Source: an uncultured Planctomycetales bacterium
GTDB lineage: Bacteria; Omnitrophota; Gorgyraeia; Aquiviventales; Aquiviventaceae
Assembly: GCA_964624155.1 (NCBI GenBank)
Contig: CAZUWM010000003.1
Span: 1 to 61,396, forward strand
DNA length: 61,396 bases
Direction of reading: 5' to 3'
In this document: one piece after another, positions 51,469 to 58,443 of the stretch
Position numbering within the stretch: position 1 is the first letter of the stretch
How the letters are laid out: every line of letters starts with the position of its first letter
Notes under the pieces: generated by a model
What the model was told of the DNA's origin: nothing
What the model saw: only the letters and a program-made list of their open reading frames with translations
Databases searched by the model: none
Made by a program: the position numbers and the translations under genes

Positions 51469-51810
51469 TTAGATCAAATCCGCGGGGGAAGCGGGACTGG
51501 CGGAAGGTGAGGAGGAAGACGGGAGGCTTCCGAGGACATCTTGGATGATTCGCTCCACGTCATCCTGCGTGACGCCATAGTACCACACGTTGTCGGGGAA
51601 GACCATGACGTTCGGGCCTTTCGCGCAGAGATCCTGGCAGCCCGACTTGCTGACCCGAACGATGCGAGATAACCCCAAGGCCTTGATGCGCTCCTTGAGT
51701 TGAGCCGCAATCGTCTCGCTCTCCCGATGGGCGCAGCAGATCTCGTTCCCCGCTCGTCGATTGATACACACAAAGAGGATCTTCTGATACGGAACGCGCG
51801 CCTGTTCCAT
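51469..51810 (-). CDS. Thioredoxin-like [2Fe-2S] ferredoxin
   Basis: FVCINRR..CC..SGCQDLCAKGP.V.VFPDNVWY. Confidence 0.9.
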   Translation of the reverse strand: MEQARVPYQKILFVCINRRAGNEICCAHRESETIAAQLKERIKALGLSRIVRVSKSGCQDLCAKGPNVMVFPDNVWYYGVTQDDVERIIQDVLGSLPSSSSPSASPASPADLI

Positions 51811-53045
51811 CAGGATCCGTTGAGGTTGATCATGTCTTCAGAGCGGCCGAGTGTCAAGAACATCATGAGGTAATCGCGCAAGTGACGGGTTAAGAGGAAA
51901 TTCTGCCGCACGTGCTCCCGCCCGTTCTCCCCAAGCTGTTTCGCAAATTCGGGGTTGCGCAAACATTGCTTGATCGCGTGCGCCGTCCCTTCGATGCTGT
52001 GCACCAGAAGCCCGCTGTAGCGATGCTTCACCTGCAGCGGAATGCCTCCGACGGCTGAGGCGACCACCGGCTTGCACTTCCACAGGGCCTCAGCCACCGT
52101 TAAGCCGAATCCTTCACGAAGCGATTTCTGCACGATCACCGTCGAACCTCGCTGGAGGGCGTTGATCTCCGTGTGGCTGTCGGGAGGCAACATCAACAGG
52201 TGGATATCGGGATCGTCGGCCACGCGTTCCCGCACGCGCGCGAGCACCTCCTCGCCCTCAGGGTCATCACTGGCCGGCCCGCCGGCCAGGACGAGCCGAC
52301 ACCGCATCGTCCGACGCACCAGGCGAAAGGCCTCCACGACCCCCACAGGATCTTTGAGATAGTCGAATCGAGAAACCTGGGTGATGATCGGCCGATCCTG
52401 CGGAATGCCCAGACGTCCGAAGACGGCCTTGATCGCCTCCGGCTCGAGCTCCCGGTTCTTGTCGCTGAGCGGATCAATGGAGGGGGCGATCAAGATTTGC
52501 CGAAGGGACGGTGACCTGGCAAACGCAGGCGCGGAGTACACGGCCGCGTCGTATTGTTGGACGTAGGGGCGCAGGAACTCCCACGCCTCCCGCTGGGCGT
52601 AGGTGAGATCAATGTGACATCGCCACACCCAGTGTCGGCCGACCGTTCGACGCCCCTCAACCAGAGCGATCGGCTGCGGATCGTGGATGAAGATGATGTC
52701 CGTGTCAAGATTCAACCGTGAGAGATTGCGACGGTTGACCTCGATGAGCGTCTGGCGCATGTCCGGCGTGATGGTTTCAGGATTCCCGTGCAAGGCGTTG
52801 TGAAGTCTCTTGGTTGCCTGATAGAAGCCGGCCGGGCCTTCCAAGACCTCCCACCGGGCGTCGAGTCCCAATTCACCGAGCAGCGGGATCATGCGATGCA
52901 AGATCTCCGCCACCCCACCGCCTGTTTTCGTGGCATTGACGCAACAGATCCTGCGACCCGCGAGGCGATCGGCCAGCAACCGTAGCTCTCGGAGCGTGCT
53001 GGGCCCGACGAACGGGCGATACTGATCCAATCCCTGCGTGCTCAT
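51810..53045 (-). CDS. treT: GT4 trehalose glycosyltransferring synthase (TreT-like)
   Basis: NAT..GGGVAEIL, IHDPQP, WRCHID, QVSRFD.LKDP.GV, EGFGLTV.EA.WK. Confidence 0.88.
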   Translation of the reverse strand: MSTQGLDQYRPFVGPSTLRELRLLADRLAGRRICCVNATKTGGGVAEILHRMIPLLGELGLDARWEVLEGPAGFYQATKRLHNALHGNPETITPDMRQTLIEVNRRNLSRLNLDTDIIFIHDPQPIALVEGRRTVGRHWVWRCHIDLTYAQREAWEFLRPYVQQYDAAVYSAPAFARSPSLRQILIAPSIDPLSDKNRELEPEAIKAVFGRLGIPQDRPIITQVSRFDYLKDPVGVVEAFRLVRRTMRCRLVLAGGPASDDPEGEEVLARVRERVADDPDIHLLMLPPDSHTEINALQRGSTVIVQKSLREGFGLTVAEALWKCKPVVASAVGGIPLQVKHRYSGLLVHSIEGTAHAIKQCLRNPEFAKQLGENGREHVRQNFLLTRHLRDYLMMFLTLGRSEDMINLNGS

Positions 53046-53746
53046 GCGTGCAACCGCTGTCTCACCAACGCGATCATCATGGAGCGCAGGGTCTCCAGGC
53101 TATGCGCATACGGATCCAGGGCCACGAGCTCCTTGGCCAACGTCGTCTCGCCGAGCTGCTCCTCACACCATCGAGCGAAATCGTTCGTCGAGCGACCCAG
53201 GCGCAGCCGCGCATCGAAGATATGGAAGTAGAGCGACGACAAACTGACGCGAGCCAGCGCATCGGCGAACTCAGACAAGCTCGATGCGGTTTCCTCCGTC
53301 GGCATGACCACCTGGACGGACTTGAGGAAGAAAAACTCCTCGCCTTCGCTGACGAATCGGAAACGAGCCGCGGGATGCTGCGCCAGATGGTCTTCGATCG
53401 TTTTGATGAGAACGCGGCGGATCTGCTCGAGAGAATCGAATTCGAGGATGTCAATGCTCGCCAATCGCTCTCCTAACGCTTCATCCCCCAACACCTCCGT
53501 GACCCAATACGCGAAGTCATGGGTGGGCTCGGGAGTCAGGTAGTGGTGGCTCAACAAGAAGTAGTGGGTGTGGTGGTAGATGCACGCTTCCGGGACCTGA
53601 CGGAGCAGCTTGACCAAGCGTGGCAGGGTGGCGGCGCGTAATCCCGTCGCCTCTTGAAGGACGAAACTGGTATGGAAGCGAAACGGCGCGGAGGCGGTCA
53701 CTGTGCGGGGACGTGCGTGCGCCACGTCACGAGACGGTTCAGCCAT
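53042..53746 (-). CDS. DUF5752-like protein (usual TreT partner)
   Basis: Internal duplication: IYHH..DFAYWV...LGERLA and LYFH..NDFARW...LA..LDPY. Confidence 0.75.
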   Translation of the reverse strand: MAEPSRDVAHARPRTVTASAPFRFHTSFVLQEATGLRAATLPRLVKLLRQVPEACIYHHTHYFLLSHHYLTPEPTHDFAYWVTEVLGDEALGERLASIDILEFDSLEQIRRVLIKTIEDHLAQHPAARFRFVSEGEEFFFLKSVQVVMPTEETASSLSEFADALARVSLSSLYFHIFDARLRLGRSTNDFARWCEEQLGETTLAKELVALDPYAHSLETLRSMMIALVRQRLHA

Positions 53747-54513
53747 TGTGTCACCTCACGCGGTGTGCGCAACCGATACATCGCCGCCGTTCGTCGGCTT
53801 GGTCGTCCGACCAATACCGAGATGCCGTGACGACGGTTGACAACACGAAACGCATCCTCATCGGTCTGATCATCGCCCACATACACCACAAGGGGCAGCC
53901 GCCAACGAGTCCGTCCAGGCCTCGGCGTGTCGAGGATCCAGCTGATGATCCGGCCTTTGTCCCATGTCACCGGCGGGCGGATCTCAATGACCCGCTTGCC
54001 GCGTGTGATCCGAACCGTCCCGCTTCGGCGATACGGAGCAAGACAGCGGCCCGCAAGACGGTGAAACGCTCGTAAGGCCGCCTGAGGGACATTCCGCCAA
54101 TGAAGACTCAACGTCAATCCTTTGTCTTCCACCTCTACGCCACGAATCGGCCCCAGCACCTTTCGTAGGTGTGTGGCCATCCGTTTGAGAAGCGGTCGTC
54201 TTGCGTTGGCGACGGGATTGAGATAGCGCAGCCGAGGGCCCTGAAGTGCTAACCCGTGGTTGCCGACATAGTAGAGACCGCGAAGACCGACCCGTCGTTG
54301 CAGGTCTCGCAATGCCCTGCCGCTGACCAGCACCACGCGAACGCCTGGGAGAGTCGCCAGGCGTTTGAGCAACGGTTTGGTCCTGCCCGAGAGCCGAGCG
54401 TCCCAGGGATGCTTGACGATGGGGGTCAACGTCCCGTCATAATCCACACACAGCAGCAACGATGCCGAGGAGGCGATACGTCGTCGGACGGGATGGTCAA
54501 CCAACTCCCGCAT
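53698..54513 (-). CDS. otsB: Trehalose-6-phosphate phosphatase
   Basis: DYDGTL, VSGR, GNHG, EDKG.T.S.HWR, EIRP..WDKG, GDDQTDEDAF. Confidence 0.93.
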   Translation of the reverse strand: MRELVDHPVRRRIASSASLLLCVDYDGTLTPIVKHPWDARLSGRTKPLLKRLATLPGVRVVLVSGRALRDLQRRVGLRGLYYVGNHGLALQGPRLRYLNPVANARRPLLKRMATHLRKVLGPIRGVEVEDKGLTLSLHWRNVPQAALRAFHRLAGRCLAPYRRSGTVRITRGKRVIEIRPPVTWDKGRIISWILDTPRPGRTRWRLPLVVYVGDDQTDEDAFRVVNRRHGISVLVGRPSRRTAAMYRLRTPREVTQWLNRLVTWRTHVPAQ

Positions 54514-56751
54514 TTAGGCAGAAGCCGCTGCATGTTCTTGAGCCGGCTGGAGACGCGTGAGCTCAGCGACCAGATTGGCCGCCCAGCGGTAGACGTTGTG
54601 CTCTTGAATCGTCCAGCGCATCCGCTCCATCCGGCTCTGCTGTTCCTCACGGCTCATGATCAGCGCAGCGTAAATGGCTTCGGCCATCTCCTCGACGTCA
54701 TAGGGATTCACGAGCAGCGCCTCTCGGAGCTCGCGAGACGCTCCGGCGAAACGACTGAGGACGAGCGATCCCCGCAAGTCAGATCGGGCGGCGACAAATT
54801 CTTTGGCCACGAGGTTCATCCCGTCGTGCAGCGAGGTGACCAAGCAGACATCCGCCGCGCGGTAGAACGGCGCGATCTCCGCTTGGCTGTGATGTTTCTT
54901 CAGAAACAGGATTGGCTTCCATTGGCGCGTCTGGAAACGCCGGTTGATCCGCTCCACCTCGGCATCCAGCTCCGCCCCCAGGTCATGGTAGCGCTTGATG
55001 ACGGTCCGGCTTGGGGCGCCAAGTTGGATAAAGACACACTTCCCGTGAAATTCCTGATGGAGTTCCAGAAAACGCTCGATGGCTCGGAACCGCTCCGTGA
55101 TGCCCTTTGTGTAATCAATCCGATCCACGCCGACTCCCACCCACTGCACGTTGAAACCCAGTTCTTTCAGAAAGTGATCCCTCGAGAACTCACCCGAGGT
55201 CTCTGGGACGGCGATGCCGATCGGAAACGGCTTGACCCACGTCGAATGGCCGGCCCGATTCACGGCGAATTGCTCCCAGTCAATCCGCGATTCCAACAAC
55301 CGATCCACGGTGTCAAGAAAGTTGTTGCAGTGAAATTGGGTATGGAAGCCGATCACATCGGCCCCCAACATACCGTGCAGCAGTGCGTCGGCCCAGGGGC
55401 AGATCCCGAAGGCTTCAGGATTGGGCCACGGGATGTGCCAGAAGAGCGCGATTCGAGCGTCCGGACGTTTCTCTTTGATCAATCTTGGCAATAAGGCGAA
55501 ATGGTAGTCTTGAATCAACACGCAGGGATGCTCGGTACCTTCCAGCTCCTCCAGAGCCGCCTGGGCGAACTTGGCGTTGACGGCCGCATACTGTTGCCAG
55601 TCCTCGACTCGGAAGATGGGACGGGTGTGCGCGATGTGGCACAAGGGCCACAACCCCTCATTGGCAAATCCGTAGTAGTAGCCATCCTCTTCTTCCTTGG
55701 TGAGCCAGAGCCGCCTGAGCGTGTAGAGGGGCGTCTCGGGAGGCACGCGCAACCGGCCGCTGGAGTCTGCGGTCTCACGGTCCGCATCGCCTGCACCGTG
55801 AGCGATCCACGTCCCTCCACAGGCTCGAAGGATGGGTTCTACCGCCGTCACCAGACCGCTGGCCGGCATGATCCACCGAACCTGCCGGCCTTGTCGGATG
55901 TGCATATACGGTTCCCGATTGGCGATGAGCAGCAGCGGCCGTCCGTTCAACGCCTTGCGAGTGTGTTCTTTCAACCGTTCGGACGTCCAGCGCGATTCAG
56001 CCGCGTGCCGCAATTTCGCTTCTGTTTCTGCTGCGGCGCGCGCGACGGTGAGGCTCCTCGCCATGTGCGTGACTTCGCGGGCCAAGGGCGCAAAGACGTC
56101 GCCTCTCGGCAGCGTGTCATGTTCCGCGAGCTCCCCACGTCGCAGGCGCCTCATCCACTCGATCGTCTTTGACAACGGCCGAAGCACGTTCCACTGGACG
56201 ATCAGCAGCGTGATGAGCGAGATCAACAGGACGTGAGCGAGCAGGCGGATGAAGTTTTGACGCCACAGACGGTCTCGCTGAGTGTCAATGTAGCCGGCGT
56301 CATGCACGATCGCCAGCGCCCCAATGATCTGCTCCACCCATCGAATCGGCAAGACTTGCAAATGCCACCGCCTCTTCTCATCAGACAAGAAGAGCCCCCT
56401 CCCCTCGCCGTTCCTCATGACGTCCTGCGCCATCTCATGAGGTTGGTGAAAGACCGCGGGGAGGCTTTGGGTGACGGCCAGAGGATGGCCCTCGTTCGTG
56501 TAGACGGCGATTCCCGCCAATCGCTCCCGCGCGCCGAAACGCTGCACCAAGCGCTGTAGTCCCTCCAGATTGCCACCCGAGGCAAGCGGCTCAACGGATT
56601 CCTGGAGACTATCAGCCAGCACGGCGGCTCGACGAGCCAGCTCCTCTTCAAGACGTCCCTGTTCCTGACGGGCCTGGAATCCGGTCGAGATGAACACCAC
56701 CGCCGCGGCCGCAAGCATAAGAGAAAAAATTAGACGAAGGGTGACTCGCAT
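54514..56751 (-). CDS. otsA: Trehalose-6-phosphate synthase with N-terminal TM-sensor-TM-HAMP module
   Basis: ANREPY, SGLVTA, IQDYH, FWHIPWP, VDRIDYTKG, DGMNLVAKEF; first ~235 aa contain two TMs and a HAMP-like segment. Confidence 0.92.
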   Translation of the reverse strand: MRVTLRLIFSLMLAAAAVVFISTGFQARQEQGRLEEELARRAAVLADSLQESVEPLASGGNLEGLQRLVQRFGARERLAGIAVYTNEGHPLAVTQSLPAVFHQPHEMAQDVMRNGEGRGLFLSDEKRRWHLQVLPIRWVEQIIGALAIVHDAGYIDTQRDRLWRQNFIRLLAHVLLISLITLLIVQWNVLRPLSKTIEWMRRLRRGELAEHDTLPRGDVFAPLAREVTHMARSLTVARAAAETEAKLRHAAESRWTSERLKEHTRKALNGRPLLLIANREPYMHIRQGRQVRWIMPASGLVTAVEPILRACGGTWIAHGAGDADRETADSSGRLRVPPETPLYTLRRLWLTKEEEDGYYYGFANEGLWPLCHIAHTRPIFRVEDWQQYAAVNAKFAQAALEELEGTEHPCVLIQDYHFALLPRLIKEKRPDARIALFWHIPWPNPEAFGICPWADALLHGMLGADVIGFHTQFHCNNFLDTVDRLLESRIDWEQFAVNRAGHSTWVKPFPIGIAVPETSGEFSRDHFLKELGFNVQWVGVGVDRIDYTKGITERFRAIERFLELHQEFHGKCVFIQLGAPSRTVIKRYHDLGAELDAEVERINRRFQTRQWKPILFLKKHHSQAEIAPFYRAADVCLVTSLHDGMNLVAKEFVAARSDLRGSLVLSRFAGASRELREALLVNPYDVEEMAEAIYAALIMSREEQQSRMERMRWTIQEHNVYRWAANLVAELTRLQPAQEHAAASA

Positions 56752-56759
56752 GGCGGGCG

Positions 56760-57659
56760 CTACTCTTTCGATTTGAGGTGGACGGTGCGAATGGGGAACG
56801 GGATCGTGATGCCGTCACGTTGATAGCGGGCATGGAGGCGTTTGACGAACTCATGCTTGACGAGATATTGATCAACGAACTCCTTGGCGCGCAGGACGAC
56901 GGTGAAATTGACGCTGGATTCGCCGAAGGTGTGAAAGCGCACCATCGGCTCAAAGGTCGCCACGCCGCCGGGAATGGTTTGCAGAACCTCTTTCGCCACG
57001 TCAACCGTCACCCGCTCGACGCGCTCCAGATCACTGTCGTAGGCCACGCCGACTTCCACCAGCACGGCCAGCTCCTTATCCGGAAGATGATAATTCGTGA
57101 TGACCGACTGGCTCAGTTTGGCATTGGGAATGATGACGGCGTTGTTGGGGAGCATCTTGATTTTCGTCTCGCGCCAGCCGATGTCGATGATGTAGCCTTC
57201 CTCCCCGCTCTGCAGTCTGACGTAGTCGCCCAGGCGCAGATTCTTGCTGACTCCCACGTACATGCCGGCAAAGAGGTTCGACAACGTATCTTGGAGCCCA
57301 AGAGCGACGCCAAGGCTTCCAATGCCCAGAGCAGCGAGGAGACTGCCAATCTTGATGCCCAAGCTGTCGAGGATGATCAGCAAACCCAGACTGAGGATCG
57401 CGATCTTCGCCAGCTGCCGGGTTAAGCTGGTCGCCGGAACAGCCATCTTCCATGTGGCGGCGTAGCGCACCACCACGTTGGAGGCCAGCCTCGCGCCGAC
57501 CCAGGCGACGGAAAAGATCCACAGCGCTTTGAGAATCTTGCCGACGACCTCCACGACGTCTTCGGGGATCGGAGAAAACTTCACGGCGAGATAGATGCCG
57601 AGCATGACAACCCACAACACCATCGGTCCTCTGATCTTTTTATGTATCATTGCTCTCAC
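56760..57659 (-). CDS. mscS: Small-conductance mechanosensitive channel
   Basis: LGIGSLGVALGLQDTLSNLFAG, GDYV, IGWRET, IPN, VGVAY, GITIPFP. Confidence 0.92.
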   Translation of the reverse strand: MRAMIHKKIRGPMVLWVVMLGIYLAVKFSPIPEDVVEVVGKILKALWIFSVAWVGARLASNVVVRYAATWKMAVPATSLTRQLAKIAILSLGLLIILDSLGIKIGSLLAALGIGSLGVALGLQDTLSNLFAGMYVGVSKNLRLGDYVRLQSGEEGYIIDIGWRETKIKMLPNNAVIIPNAKLSQSVITNYHLPDKELAVLVEVGVAYDSDLERVERVTVDVAKEVLQTIPGGVATFEPMVRFHTFGESSVNFTVVLRAKEFVDQYLVKHEFVKRLHARYQRDGITIPFPIRTVHLKSKE

Positions 57660-57691: not shown

Positions 57692-58141
57692 TCATAGTGG
57701 TTGGCGGTCAGCGTAGCCGCTCTCGACGGGGTGCCAAAACCTGACGGTGTCCTCATCCAGCTTCCAACAGAGGAAGGCCGGCTCTCCGTCACGGACTGTA
57801 TAGAAATCGACGAGGCCCGCGTTGAGATCCTTCAGGACGCCGCCGAGTGTTTCGAGCTGTTGGAGCGCGGAATGAAACGCTTCAATGAGCTGCAACTGGT
57901 GCCGGGTGAGGGATTCGATCTGCTGGCGGACTTCGTGGAGGGGATACCCGTTCCCTTGGGAGAGCTTGTTCACCGACTCATCGAGCTGTTCGTTCGTCTT
58001 GAGGATCGAACCATGCAACCCTTGAAGCTGCTCGATGAGGGGACGAACGCGAGGCAGGAGCGCGTTCGCCTCGTCAACTGCGAAAACCTTGGGAGGTTGC
58101 TCGGAAGGCAGTTGTCCTACACGCTGAAGGAGGAGCCGCAC
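57692..58141 (-). CDS. DUF2203-family protein
   Basis: F.VDEANALLP, LKDL..GLVDF, LCWKL.E...WH..GYA.RQPL. Confidence 0.85.
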   Translation of the reverse strand: MRLLLQRVGQLPSEQPPKVFAVDEANALLPRVRPLIEQLQGLHGSILKTNEQLDESVNKLSQGNGYPLHEVRQQIESLTRHQLQLIEAFHSALQQLETLGGVLKDLNAGLVDFYTVRDGEPAFLCWKLDEDTVRFWHPVESGYADRQPL

Positions 58142-58443
58142 CCGCAGGACTTCTTGGCCAACGGATTGTTGAATTCAAACCCGCCGCCCACCAGACCGCT
58201 CTTGAAATCAATCGTCGTCCCATCGAGGTAGAGGTGGCTCTTCGCGTCAACCAGAATCTTCAACCCGTCCTGCTCAAAGACGGTATCGTACTGCTTCGGG
58301 GTGGCCTCATCCACGAGCATCTGGTAGCTGAAGCCGGAGCACCCGCCCCCCTTGACCCCCAGGCGAAGGGCCGCGTTGGGCTTCTGCTCTTTCGCGATCA
58401 AGCGTCTCACTTCCTCAGCCGCCGTCGGTGTTAACGTAATCAT
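58117..58443 (-). CDS. A-type Fe-S carrier (IscA/ErpA, HesB family)
   Basis: GGGCSG.SY, LDG..IDF, NP.AK.SCGCGSSF; SD AAGGAGG. Confidence 0.95.
   Translation of the reverse strand: MITLTPTAAEEVRRLIAKEQKPNAALRLGVKGGGCSGFSYQMLVDEATPKQYDTVFEQDGLKILVDAKSHLYLDGTTIDFKSGLVGGGFEFNNPLAKKSCGCGSSFSV

Follow-up and report, generated by a model that had tools for sequence, protein, structure and literature searches.

Can the rate at which a cell makes a compatible solute be set by a membrane sensor that belongs to the same polypeptide as the synthase? Trehalose is a main bacterial protectant against drying, salt and cold, and the textbook controls on its synthesis are transcription (RpoS in E. coli) and soluble allosteric effectors. 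OtsA/Tps1 trehalose-6-phosphate synthases are soluble cytosolic proteins of about 460–500 amino acids without a membrane segment. The question is raised by a gene in the window, by which we mean the whole 61,396-nucleotide stretch of DNA that was analysed. Its product shares with the soluble enzymes (E. coli, 1gz5/1uqt; 5jij) a full-length GT20 domain of the GT-B type, the active-site residues and an adjacent otsB. Unlike them, it carries 272 additional N-terminal residues that form a TM-PDC-TM-HAMP-like-linker module, and its GT20 domain falls in a separate, long-branch clade.

A sensor module and a GT20 domain share one open reading frame

The open reading frame lies on the minus strand (54514..56751), with its ATG at 56751 and its stop codon at 54514–54516, and encodes 745 amino acids. 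Its coordinates had been given correctly in a preliminary description of this DNA. The start codon is supported by the N-terminus M-R/K-x-T-L-R-L, which is conserved in homologues. A plus-strand reading of the same interval was ruled out by its many stops. The stretch is present in six DNA sequencing runs from two studies, with most of it in four; no RNA run was among the sequencing runs listed for it.

We observed the domain order TM1, WalK-like PDC/sCache periplasmic domain, TM2, HAMP-like helix-loop-helix, 38-residue conserved linker and complete GT20 domain. This bears out the TM/extracytoplasmic domain/TM layout and the intact GT20 domain that had been described for the protein, while the HAMP portion of that layout is only borderline, with scores below the Pfam cut-off. 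An AlphaFold2 model of residues 1–275 (pLDDT 84) showed a long helix and a five-stranded alpha/beta domain between the TM segments and, past TM2, a helix, a 16-residue loop and a second helix. TM1 (residues ~3–24; 56680..56745, minus strand) has a Kyte-Doolittle peak of 2.39, is helical in the model and is flanked at its cytoplasmic end by Arg2 and Arg6. TM2 (residues ~165–187; 56191..56259, minus strand) has a peak of 2.55 and lies within a continuous model helix (residues 153–204). As predicted from hydropathy and the cytoplasmic positive charges, the topology is N-in, with the PDC domain in the periplasm and the GT20 domain in the cytoplasm.

We rejected an assembly or gene-calling artefact that joined a sensor gene to otsA, because a fusion of the same size (735–777 aa) recurs in hundreds of independent assemblies. 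The fusion was also found in hundreds of protein clusters. The gene is a single open frame without a stop, and we found no evidence for an artefact, the probability of which we consider negligible.

The periplasmic domain has a WalK-like PDC fold

The domain between the two TM segments (residues ~28–164; 56260..56670, minus strand) was assigned as a PDC or single-Cache-like sensor by its fold matches and by a profile match to the extracellular domain of WalK. In the model it has a PDC-type fold, with a long N-terminal helix, a five-stranded antiparallel sheet and flanking helices. The WalK extracellular PDC domain (4ywz) superposed with a VIA Z score of 15.2 and an rmsd of 2.0 Å over 130 of its 147 residues, and CitA (2j80) reached Z 14.1. 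Foldseek also matched the WalK extracellular domain (E 6e-8 to 2e-7), together with KinD and DctB, and residues 1–264 superposed on a full-length WalK model (TMq 0.67). At the sequence level, the WalK extracellular domain was matched by the fusion-family profile (E 1.5e-4). The preliminary description had raised a Cache fold as a question, and these data place the domain among Cache-type folds as a WalK-like PDC/sCache. No specific Pfam Cache/PDC family scored above threshold among 31 family members, in which the sub-threshold matches were to SMP_2 (15 members), sCache_3_2 (4), CHASE8 (4) and Cache_WalK (1).

The nearest non-OtsA relatives of the whole sensor module were WalK-type histidine kinases. 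The family profile aligned over residues 6–240 with Omnitrophota kinases of the order TM-sensor-TM-HAMP-PAS-HisKA-HATPase (hhalign probability 95.8%, E 8e-9), in register with the above-threshold Pfam HAMP of the kinases. The claim that the N-terminus is a histidine-kinase-type input is therefore upheld as homology to the WalK-type input. As in WalK (YycG), TM1, an extracytoplasmic PDC domain, TM2 and HAMP follow in the same order; unlike in WalK-type kinases, the output is a glycosyltransferase, without PAS, HisKA, HATPase or a response regulator.

LapD-type inside-out receptors also combine a periplasmic PDC-like domain, TM helices, HAMP and a cytoplasmic nucleotide-binding module. By analogy, the GT20 domain might sense a sugar nucleotide or trehalose-6-phosphate and, via the HAMP-like unit, alter a periplasmic domain that binds a periplasmic partner. 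The periplasmic output domain of LapD/CdgS9 did match in fold (Z 10.2) and weakly in sequence (E 0.07), and Pfam LapD_MoxY_N was hit in 2 of 31 family members, but the matches to the WalK and CitA sensor domains were stronger. Whereas the cytoplasmic domains of LapD are degenerate and only bind ligand, that of the fusion keeps all catalytic residues checked and comes from the sole GT20 gene of its genome. No conserved periplasmic partner gene was found among the neighbours tested in related loci. We regard signalling in this direction as highly improbable.

Residues 86–117, the usual PDC ligand-pocket region, were the least conserved (0.39–0.47), and no conserved small-molecule site was evident in the PDC domain of the family. 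One natural variant (L092) has no periplasmic domain and a single TM segment and retains the HAMP-like unit and the linker. The extracytoplasmic sensor is thus dispensable in at least one lineage. The poorly conserved pocket region and this variant speak for a simple membrane tether, which is a serious rival to switching: the N-terminal module, as a relic of a kinase input, would serve to anchor and dimerise OtsA at the inner membrane face, where the enzyme would be constitutively active, and would pass no signal. Trehalose might, for example, be made where lipids need protection, or beside channels. A constitutive tether explains the same anatomy.

A divergent HAMP-like unit leads into a conserved linker

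The HAMP-like helix-connector-helix (residues ~188–234; 56050..56190, minus strand) scored 17.0–19.1 bits with Pfam HAMP (PF00672) on residues 187–234, against a cut-off of 25; the match spanned profile positions 4–51 of 53. HAMP was matched at E ≤ 0.1 in just 4 of the 31 family members (best E 3.7e-5). The unit is more divergent here than in the kinases (17–19 versus 39–42 bits). Weak NCBIfam matches (E 2e-4 to 6e-3) were to the TM2 and HAMP region of Tar, CreC, MtrB and WalK. When the HAMP and linker profile was searched alone against the PDB, no HAMP protein was found, and the same segment compared with bona fide HAMP was not significant (E 0.024, probability 2%). In the full-length monomer model, the HAMP-like region had a pLDDT below 50.

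The residues 1–275 model showed a HAMP-like layout of ~50 residues after the TM segment, with helix 153–204, loop 205–220 and helix 221–253. P192 (near the start of helix 1), R204 and E226 (helix 2) were invariant across about a dozen phyla, and G206, at the start of the connector, was present in at least 90% of alignment rows. The HAMP assignment on which the earlier proposal depended is thus borderline: the layout is present, and the scores fall below the Pfam threshold, with few members matching.

The linker (residues 235–272; 55936..56049, minus strand) continues the second helix to residue 253 and, after a short break, forms a helix at 257–268. With a mean column identity of 0.68–0.72, it was the best conserved part of the N-terminal module (TM2 and AS2, 0.54–0.71; GT20, 0.78). 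A237, A241, E244, A245, T256 and L260 were invariant across phyla.

The sub-threshold HAMP scores favour the tether, but a folded periplasmic domain and a HAMP-like unit would be superfluous in a simple anchor, and both are kept, with invariant residues, across about a dozen phyla. Linker conservation that nearly equals that of the enzyme also argues against a passive anchor, as does the kinship of the module with working signalling kinases. We consider the tether possible but rather unlikely.

The GT20 domain retains the OtsA active site

The GT20 (OtsA-type) catalytic domain occupies residues 273–732 (54556..55935, minus strand). PF00982 matched residues 276–732 over nearly its full length (profile positions 6–472 of 473; E 1e-116; 390.6 bits against a cut-off of 32.5). 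The matches in the PDB were to OtsA/Tps1 enzymes, including Mycolicibacterium thermoresistibile OtsA (5jij, E 2e-77) and E. coli OtsA (1gz5, E 6e-67), with 34% identity between the E. coli enzyme and the fused domain.

We compared the residues that contact glucose-6-phosphate and UDP-glucose in the E. coli enzyme (R9, G22, Y76, W85, D130, H154, R262, K267, R300, D361 and E369). Ten of these map by pairwise alignment to G299, Y359, W368, D415, H439, R544, K549, R582, D643 and E651. R9 lies outside the local alignment and was paired with R279 on the basis of the motif alone (Ser-Asn-Arg in E. coli, Ala-Asn-Arg here). All eleven positions were invariant or nearly so in the fusion family. The description of the GT20 domain as intact is consistent with these data, since every OtsA active-site residue checked is retained, and the catalytic domain looks competent by this measure.

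The NCBIfam equivalog cut-offs for OtsA were missed (TIGR02400, 421.5 bits against 564.85; NF011071, 472 against 634), although these were still the best-scoring families, and GgpS (TIGR02398) matched the fused domain at 300 bits. Together with the long branch that separates the fused clade from E. coli OtsA, these scores could point to another product, with GT20 as a nucleotide-sugar-dependent variant or the maker of a different glycosyl-phosphate osmolyte. In that case, the sensor would be linked to a synthase for another solute. We judge this improbable, given that the glucose-6-phosphate and UDP-glucose contacts of E. coli OtsA are all retained, that every one of the best matches with a solved structure is a trehalose-6-phosphate synthase and that the trehalose-phosphatase gene which directly follows passes its equivalog cut-off.

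The fused gene lies in a compact trehalose gene cluster

The fused otsA is part of a tightly packed row, mscS-otsA-otsB-DUF5752-treT, on the minus strand. The first base of otsB (trehalose-6-phosphate phosphatase; 53698..54513; TIGR00685 180.5 bits against a cut-off of 68; PF02358 E 1e-45) directly follows the otsA stop codon. Beyond it are a DUF5752 gene (53042..53746; PF19027 E 1e-64) and a gene for a TreT-like trehalose synthase of family GT4 (51810..53045; PF21269 E 8e-52; NF041139 351 bits, below the equivalog cut-off). Upstream, the gene for an MscS-type mechanosensitive channel (56760..57659; Pfam MS_channel domains and NCBIfam MscS) ends 8 nt before the otsA ATG. Of 68 related loci, 31 had the DUF5752 and treT pair downstream of their fused otsA. 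A same-strand MscS gene near it was present in just 3 of 80.

The fused gene is the sole GT20 gene of this 1.8-Mb Omnitrophota genome (92% complete). Given this, the adjoining otsB and the retained active-site residues, the fused protein is most likely the trehalose-6-phosphate synthase of the cell, as predicted from sequence.

In Thermoproteus tenax, the msc-gt-tpsp operon co-transcribes a GT20 synthase with a small-conductance mechanosensitive channel and a GT4 enzyme, for which a logic of make on upshock and release on downshock was proposed (Zaparty et al. 2013, PMC3634074). The TPSP of that operon is a soluble fusion of synthase and phosphatase that is activated by binding of the GT (PMC3634074). 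The likeness to the present locus is limited to the co-location of MscS, GT20 and GT4: here otsB is separate, a membrane sensor forms part of the synthase, and the GT4 enzyme is TreT-like and paired with DUF5752.

A signal-controlled synthase is the preferred reading

We lean slightly towards the reading that the gene encodes a membrane-embedded receptor-enzyme, a signal-controlled trehalose-6-phosphate synthase. An osmolyte synthase under direct signal control is consistent with the architecture, the competent-looking GT20 domain, the kinase-input homology, the sole GT20 gene and the otsB and MscS neighbours. Switching of the enzyme by the sensor is what we infer from architecture and conservation.

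Under this proposal, the protein would be a dimer, as HAMP receptors are. A homodimer prediction for residues 1–275 with the family alignment scored 0.21 against a mark of 0.42, a value that speaks neither for nor against a dimer. The cue would come from the periplasm or the membrane, with osmotic, ionic or envelope stress as the most plausible candidates, and would change how the HAMP-like bundle and the linker helices pack. The linker would join the N-terminal lobe of the GT-B enzyme, and its movement could directly increase or decrease the synthesis of trehalose-6-phosphate, with neither a phosphorelay nor a transcription step. OtsB would then produce trehalose, and in this genome the MscS channel, presumably co-transcribed, may serve as the opposite, down-shock arm.

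In membrane adenylyl cyclases (for example mycobacterial Rv3645) and HAMP-GGDEF diguanylate cyclases, a TM sensor, a HAMP-type unit and a cytoplasmic catalytic domain are likewise coupled within a single polypeptide. To our knowledge, HAMP receptors have outputs that synthesise or degrade signalling molecules or that phosphorylate their partners. In contrast, the output of the fusion would be a bulk compatible-solute precursor made by a GT-B enzyme. The chances seem to us evenly balanced that it represents a new output class of HAMP receptors, in which a PDC sensor outside the cytoplasm has direct control over how fast a GT-B enzyme works and compatible-solute control is held within one polypeptide, free of phosphorelay, second messenger and transcription. 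In its full form, this evenly balanced proposal has the class arising once and passing among about a dozen phyla, and it makes the fusion the principal or sole OtsA of many Acidobacteriota from soil and Omnitrophota from groundwater. If so, a bulk metabolic enzyme would join signalling enzymes among the known outputs of HAMP-type receptors, and a synthase wired to its own sensor would offer a much faster and more direct route of control. Since its output is a measurable sugar phosphate, the fusion could serve as a simple test system for HAMP signalling.

The fusion is widespread and annotated as plain OtsA

We counted at least 253 species genomes that encode the fusion. They represent about a dozen phyla, and most belong to Acidobacteriota, in which the fusion is the prevalent form. 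In Omnitrophota, about 64 of the 127 GT20-bearing genomes sampled carried it, and it is widespread in soil and groundwater bacteria. Acidobacteriota are among the most abundant soil bacteria, and prevalence of the fusion in this group could matter for the response of soil communities to drought and rewetting.

The fused GT20 domains lay on one side of a branch with support of 97/95, which was recovered in 98% of bootstrap trees, and formed a long-branch clade separate from E. coli OtsA. One well-supported group fits a single fusion followed by horizontal transfer, and the fusion probably arose once and then spread in this way.

The fusion is not rare and is widespread in databases under the OtsA name, which makes it less distinctive; no description of it was found in the literature searched. 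The full-text search, which covered papers other than subscription-only ones, returned no paper describing the fusion and none mentioning DUF5752. No cultured strain carrying the fusion was identified among the named cluster members, all of which were proteins from metagenome-assembled genomes called trehalose-6-phosphate synthase. All database copies seen were likewise annotated plainly as "trehalose-6-phosphate synthase". Hundreds of entries under that name conceal a 270-residue sensor module, which domain databases mostly leave unlabelled.

The fused OtsA is a membrane-embedded enzyme with a kinase-type sensor module

We observed that positions 54514-56751 of the window contain one open reading frame of 745 aa; it is read on the minus strand, from an ATG at 56751 to a stop codon at 54514-54516. 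The plus-strand frame at these coordinates was full of stops and was rejected. The start codon is well placed, because homologues from other phyla share the same N-terminal opening motif, M-R/K-x-T-L-R-L. The enzyme domain is intact, as the preliminary description had it: the OtsA-type catalytic domain GT20 (PF00982) covers residues 276-732 (E = 1e-116), its closest solved structures are all trehalose-6-phosphate synthases (E = 2e-77), and it is 34% identical to E. coli OtsA. The residues that contact glucose-6-phosphate and UDP-glucose in E. coli OtsA are all present, and show little or no variation across the family; E. coli R9 falls outside the local alignment and was matched by motif only. 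Because scores fell below the NCBIfam equivalog thresholds, the name trehalose-6-phosphate synthase rests on the domain match, these residues and the gene context. The gene was the only GT20 gene in the 1.81-Mb genome (92% complete), and its product is the sole OtsA of the source organism.

Hydropathy analysis placed two membrane segments at about residues 3-24 (TM1) and 165-187 (TM2). Arg/Lys residues lie ahead of TM1, and six lie within 28 residues past TM2. This charge pattern favours an N-in orientation, in which residues 28-164 would be outside and everything past residue 187 cytoplasmic. Thirty homologues went into an AlphaFold2 model of residues 1-275 (mean pLDDT 84). In it, a long helix (2-58) is followed by a five-stranded alpha/beta core (62-151); the next helix runs through TM2 and ends at residue 204, and beyond a loop of 16 residues lie a helix at 221-253 and a short one at 257-267. 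The top match of this N-terminal module in an all-against-representatives structural search was the WalK extracellular domain (Z = 15.2, rmsd 2.0 Å, 130/147 residues), followed by CitA, DctB, KinD and many Cache chemoreceptor domains. Foldseek was concordant and superposed 264 model columns on a full-length WalK model, including TM2 and HAMP (TMq 0.67). By sequence alone, a module profile from 31 species matched the WalK extracellular domain at E = 1.5e-4. From the WalK-led structural matches and this profile match, the extracytoplasmic part is a sensor domain of the PDC/single-Cache type. The proposed layout of two membrane segments flanking an extracytoplasmic domain was borne out.

No specific Pfam Cache family reached threshold for this domain in 31 family members; weak matches were to SMP_2, sCache_3_2 and CHASE8. 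The region of the usual PDC ligand pocket was poorly conserved (mean column identity 0.39-0.47), which argues against one small-molecule ligand conserved across the family.

The sensor module is related to histidine kinase inputs

When 201 Omnitrophota genomes were searched with the profile, the nearest non-OtsA relatives of the sensor module were proteins of ~615-630 aa. All three examined (L089:443-2335 (-), L090:95-1942 (+) and L091:254-2098 (-)) were TM-sensor-TM-HAMP-PAS-HisKA-HATPase kinases, with HAMP above the Pfam cut-off (39-42 bits). Across residues 6-240 the family profile aligned with one of these kinases, in register with its HAMP (probability 95.8%). These alignments indicate that the N-terminal module as a whole shares its ancestry with a kinase input module, and the three kinases are candidates for its donor lineage.

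The HAMP domain postulated after TM2 held only in part. A unit of ~48 residues straight after TM2 has the position, length and helix-connector-helix shape of HAMP, and P192 near its start, G206 opening the connector and E226 in the second helix are kept across phyla. NCBIfam gave weak, mutually consistent matches to the TM2 and HAMP region of Tar, CreC, MtrB and WalK. The alignment of Pfam HAMP to residues 187-234 used almost the full profile, but it scored 17-19 bits, below the cut-off of 25, and only 4/31 family members matched at E ≤ 0.1. The HAMP and linker segment alone was not significant (E = 0.024, probability 2%) and retrieved no HAMP protein from the PDB; in the full-length monomer model, the HAMP-like segment was predicted with low confidence. 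Because the whole module is homologous to a kinase input while segment-level scores stay weak, these residues are best termed HAMP-like, their membership of the HAMP family being unproven.

The linker (residues 235-272) was the best-conserved stretch of the module (mean column identity 0.68-0.72, versus 0.78 in the enzyme domain), and Ala237, Ala241, Glu244, Ala245, Thr256 and Leu260 were invariant over about a dozen phyla. Such conservation would be expected of a coupling element but not of a passive spacer. We infer that the sensor module regulates GT20 catalysis, with a constitutive membrane tether as the chief alternative. A 578-aa Omnitrophota variant (L092:1167-2903 (+)) lacks the periplasmic domain and the conserved Pro, yet retains a single TM helix, the HAMP-like unit and the conserved linker ahead of GT20. 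This is compatible with a signal carried by the membrane as well as with anchoring alone, and as a natural sensor-less form the variant would be a useful comparison for the full protein.

The fusion is widespread and its architecture is conserved under selection

Searching with the N-terminal module returned 478 protein clusters of ~750 aa bearing GT20, and, at 50% identity, 929 representatives, many being fragments. At least 253 species carry the fusion in one-genome-per-species data, mostly Acidobacteriota. By MAG label, other carriers are Elusimicrobiota, Omnitrophota, Bacteroidota, Ignavibacteriota, Methylomirabilota, Planctomycetota, Deltaproteobacteria/Syntrophus, Eremiobacterota-type, Chloroflexota and one Saccharimonadales bin. 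The named database copies examined are all annotated simply as trehalose-6-phosphate synthase (two IMG entries with added wording), and a full-text literature search found no description of the sensor-GT20 fusion.

Within Omnitrophota, GT20 was above cut-off in 127/201 genomes. The sensor module was found in about 64, almost always in a 735-777-aa frame with GT20 directly after; the few shorter frames were located at contig ends. The remaining genomes carried ~500-aa unfused or ~735-aa forms resembling synthase-phosphatase fusions. Fused and unfused genes are not strict alternatives, because genomes G042 and G134 hold both; a third genome has two fused copies.

A maximum-likelihood tree placed 29/29 fused GT20 domains on one side of a branch (UFBoot 97, SH-aLRT 95, 98% of bootstrap trees), with phyla intermixed within the fused group and ten unfused Omnitrophota enzymes as its sister under midpoint rooting, the only root used. 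The 46 domains were hand-chosen (24 of 80 loci, 20 Omnitrophota regions, the window and E. coli). The tree and distribution are consistent with a single fusion followed by horizontal spread. In three acidobacterial loci (L048, L063 and L070), tblastn found the GT20 part in two to four overlapping pieces, which suggests frameshifts from gene decay or assembly indel errors.

Fused otsA lies in a trehalose gene row

The gene lies in a tightly packed minus-strand row: DUF2203, MscS, fused otsA, otsB, DUF5752, a TreT-like GT4 and a small ferredoxin-like ORF. The mscS stop is 8 nt upstream of the otsA ATG, and otsB, above its equivalog cut-off, begins on the base right after the otsA stop codon. A search of sequencing runs turned up no RNA data for the stretch. 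In 68 related loci the downstream sequence was long enough for comparison: otsB was the next gene in 31, DUF5752 and treT were present in 31, at least one of these elements occurred in 48, and all three in 15. The DUF5752-treT pair (51810-53746 (-) in the window) is found downstream of fused otsA in many phyla, whether or not otsB is present. DUF5752 may work alongside TreT or regulate it; a full-text search found no mention of it.

Same-strand MscS was rare (3/80 related loci, plus the closest Omnitrophota relative). In Thermoproteus tenax, an operon likewise combines a GT20 synthase and a GT4 with an MscS-like channel, and the authors of that study proposed that trehalose is made on up-shock and released on down-shock (PMC3634074). 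The T. tenax synthase is soluble and fused to its phosphatase, whereas the window synthase is membrane-embedded and otsB is separate.

The stretch immediately upstream of mscS (57692-58443 (-)) holds the DUF2203 gene together with an Fe-S cluster biosynthesis (PF01521) gene that overlaps the DUF2203 start. The small ORF ending the row (51469-51810 (-)) shares one base with the treT stop and has weak, sub-cut-off matches to thioredoxin-like [2Fe-2S] ferredoxin and Sucrase/ferredoxin-like families.
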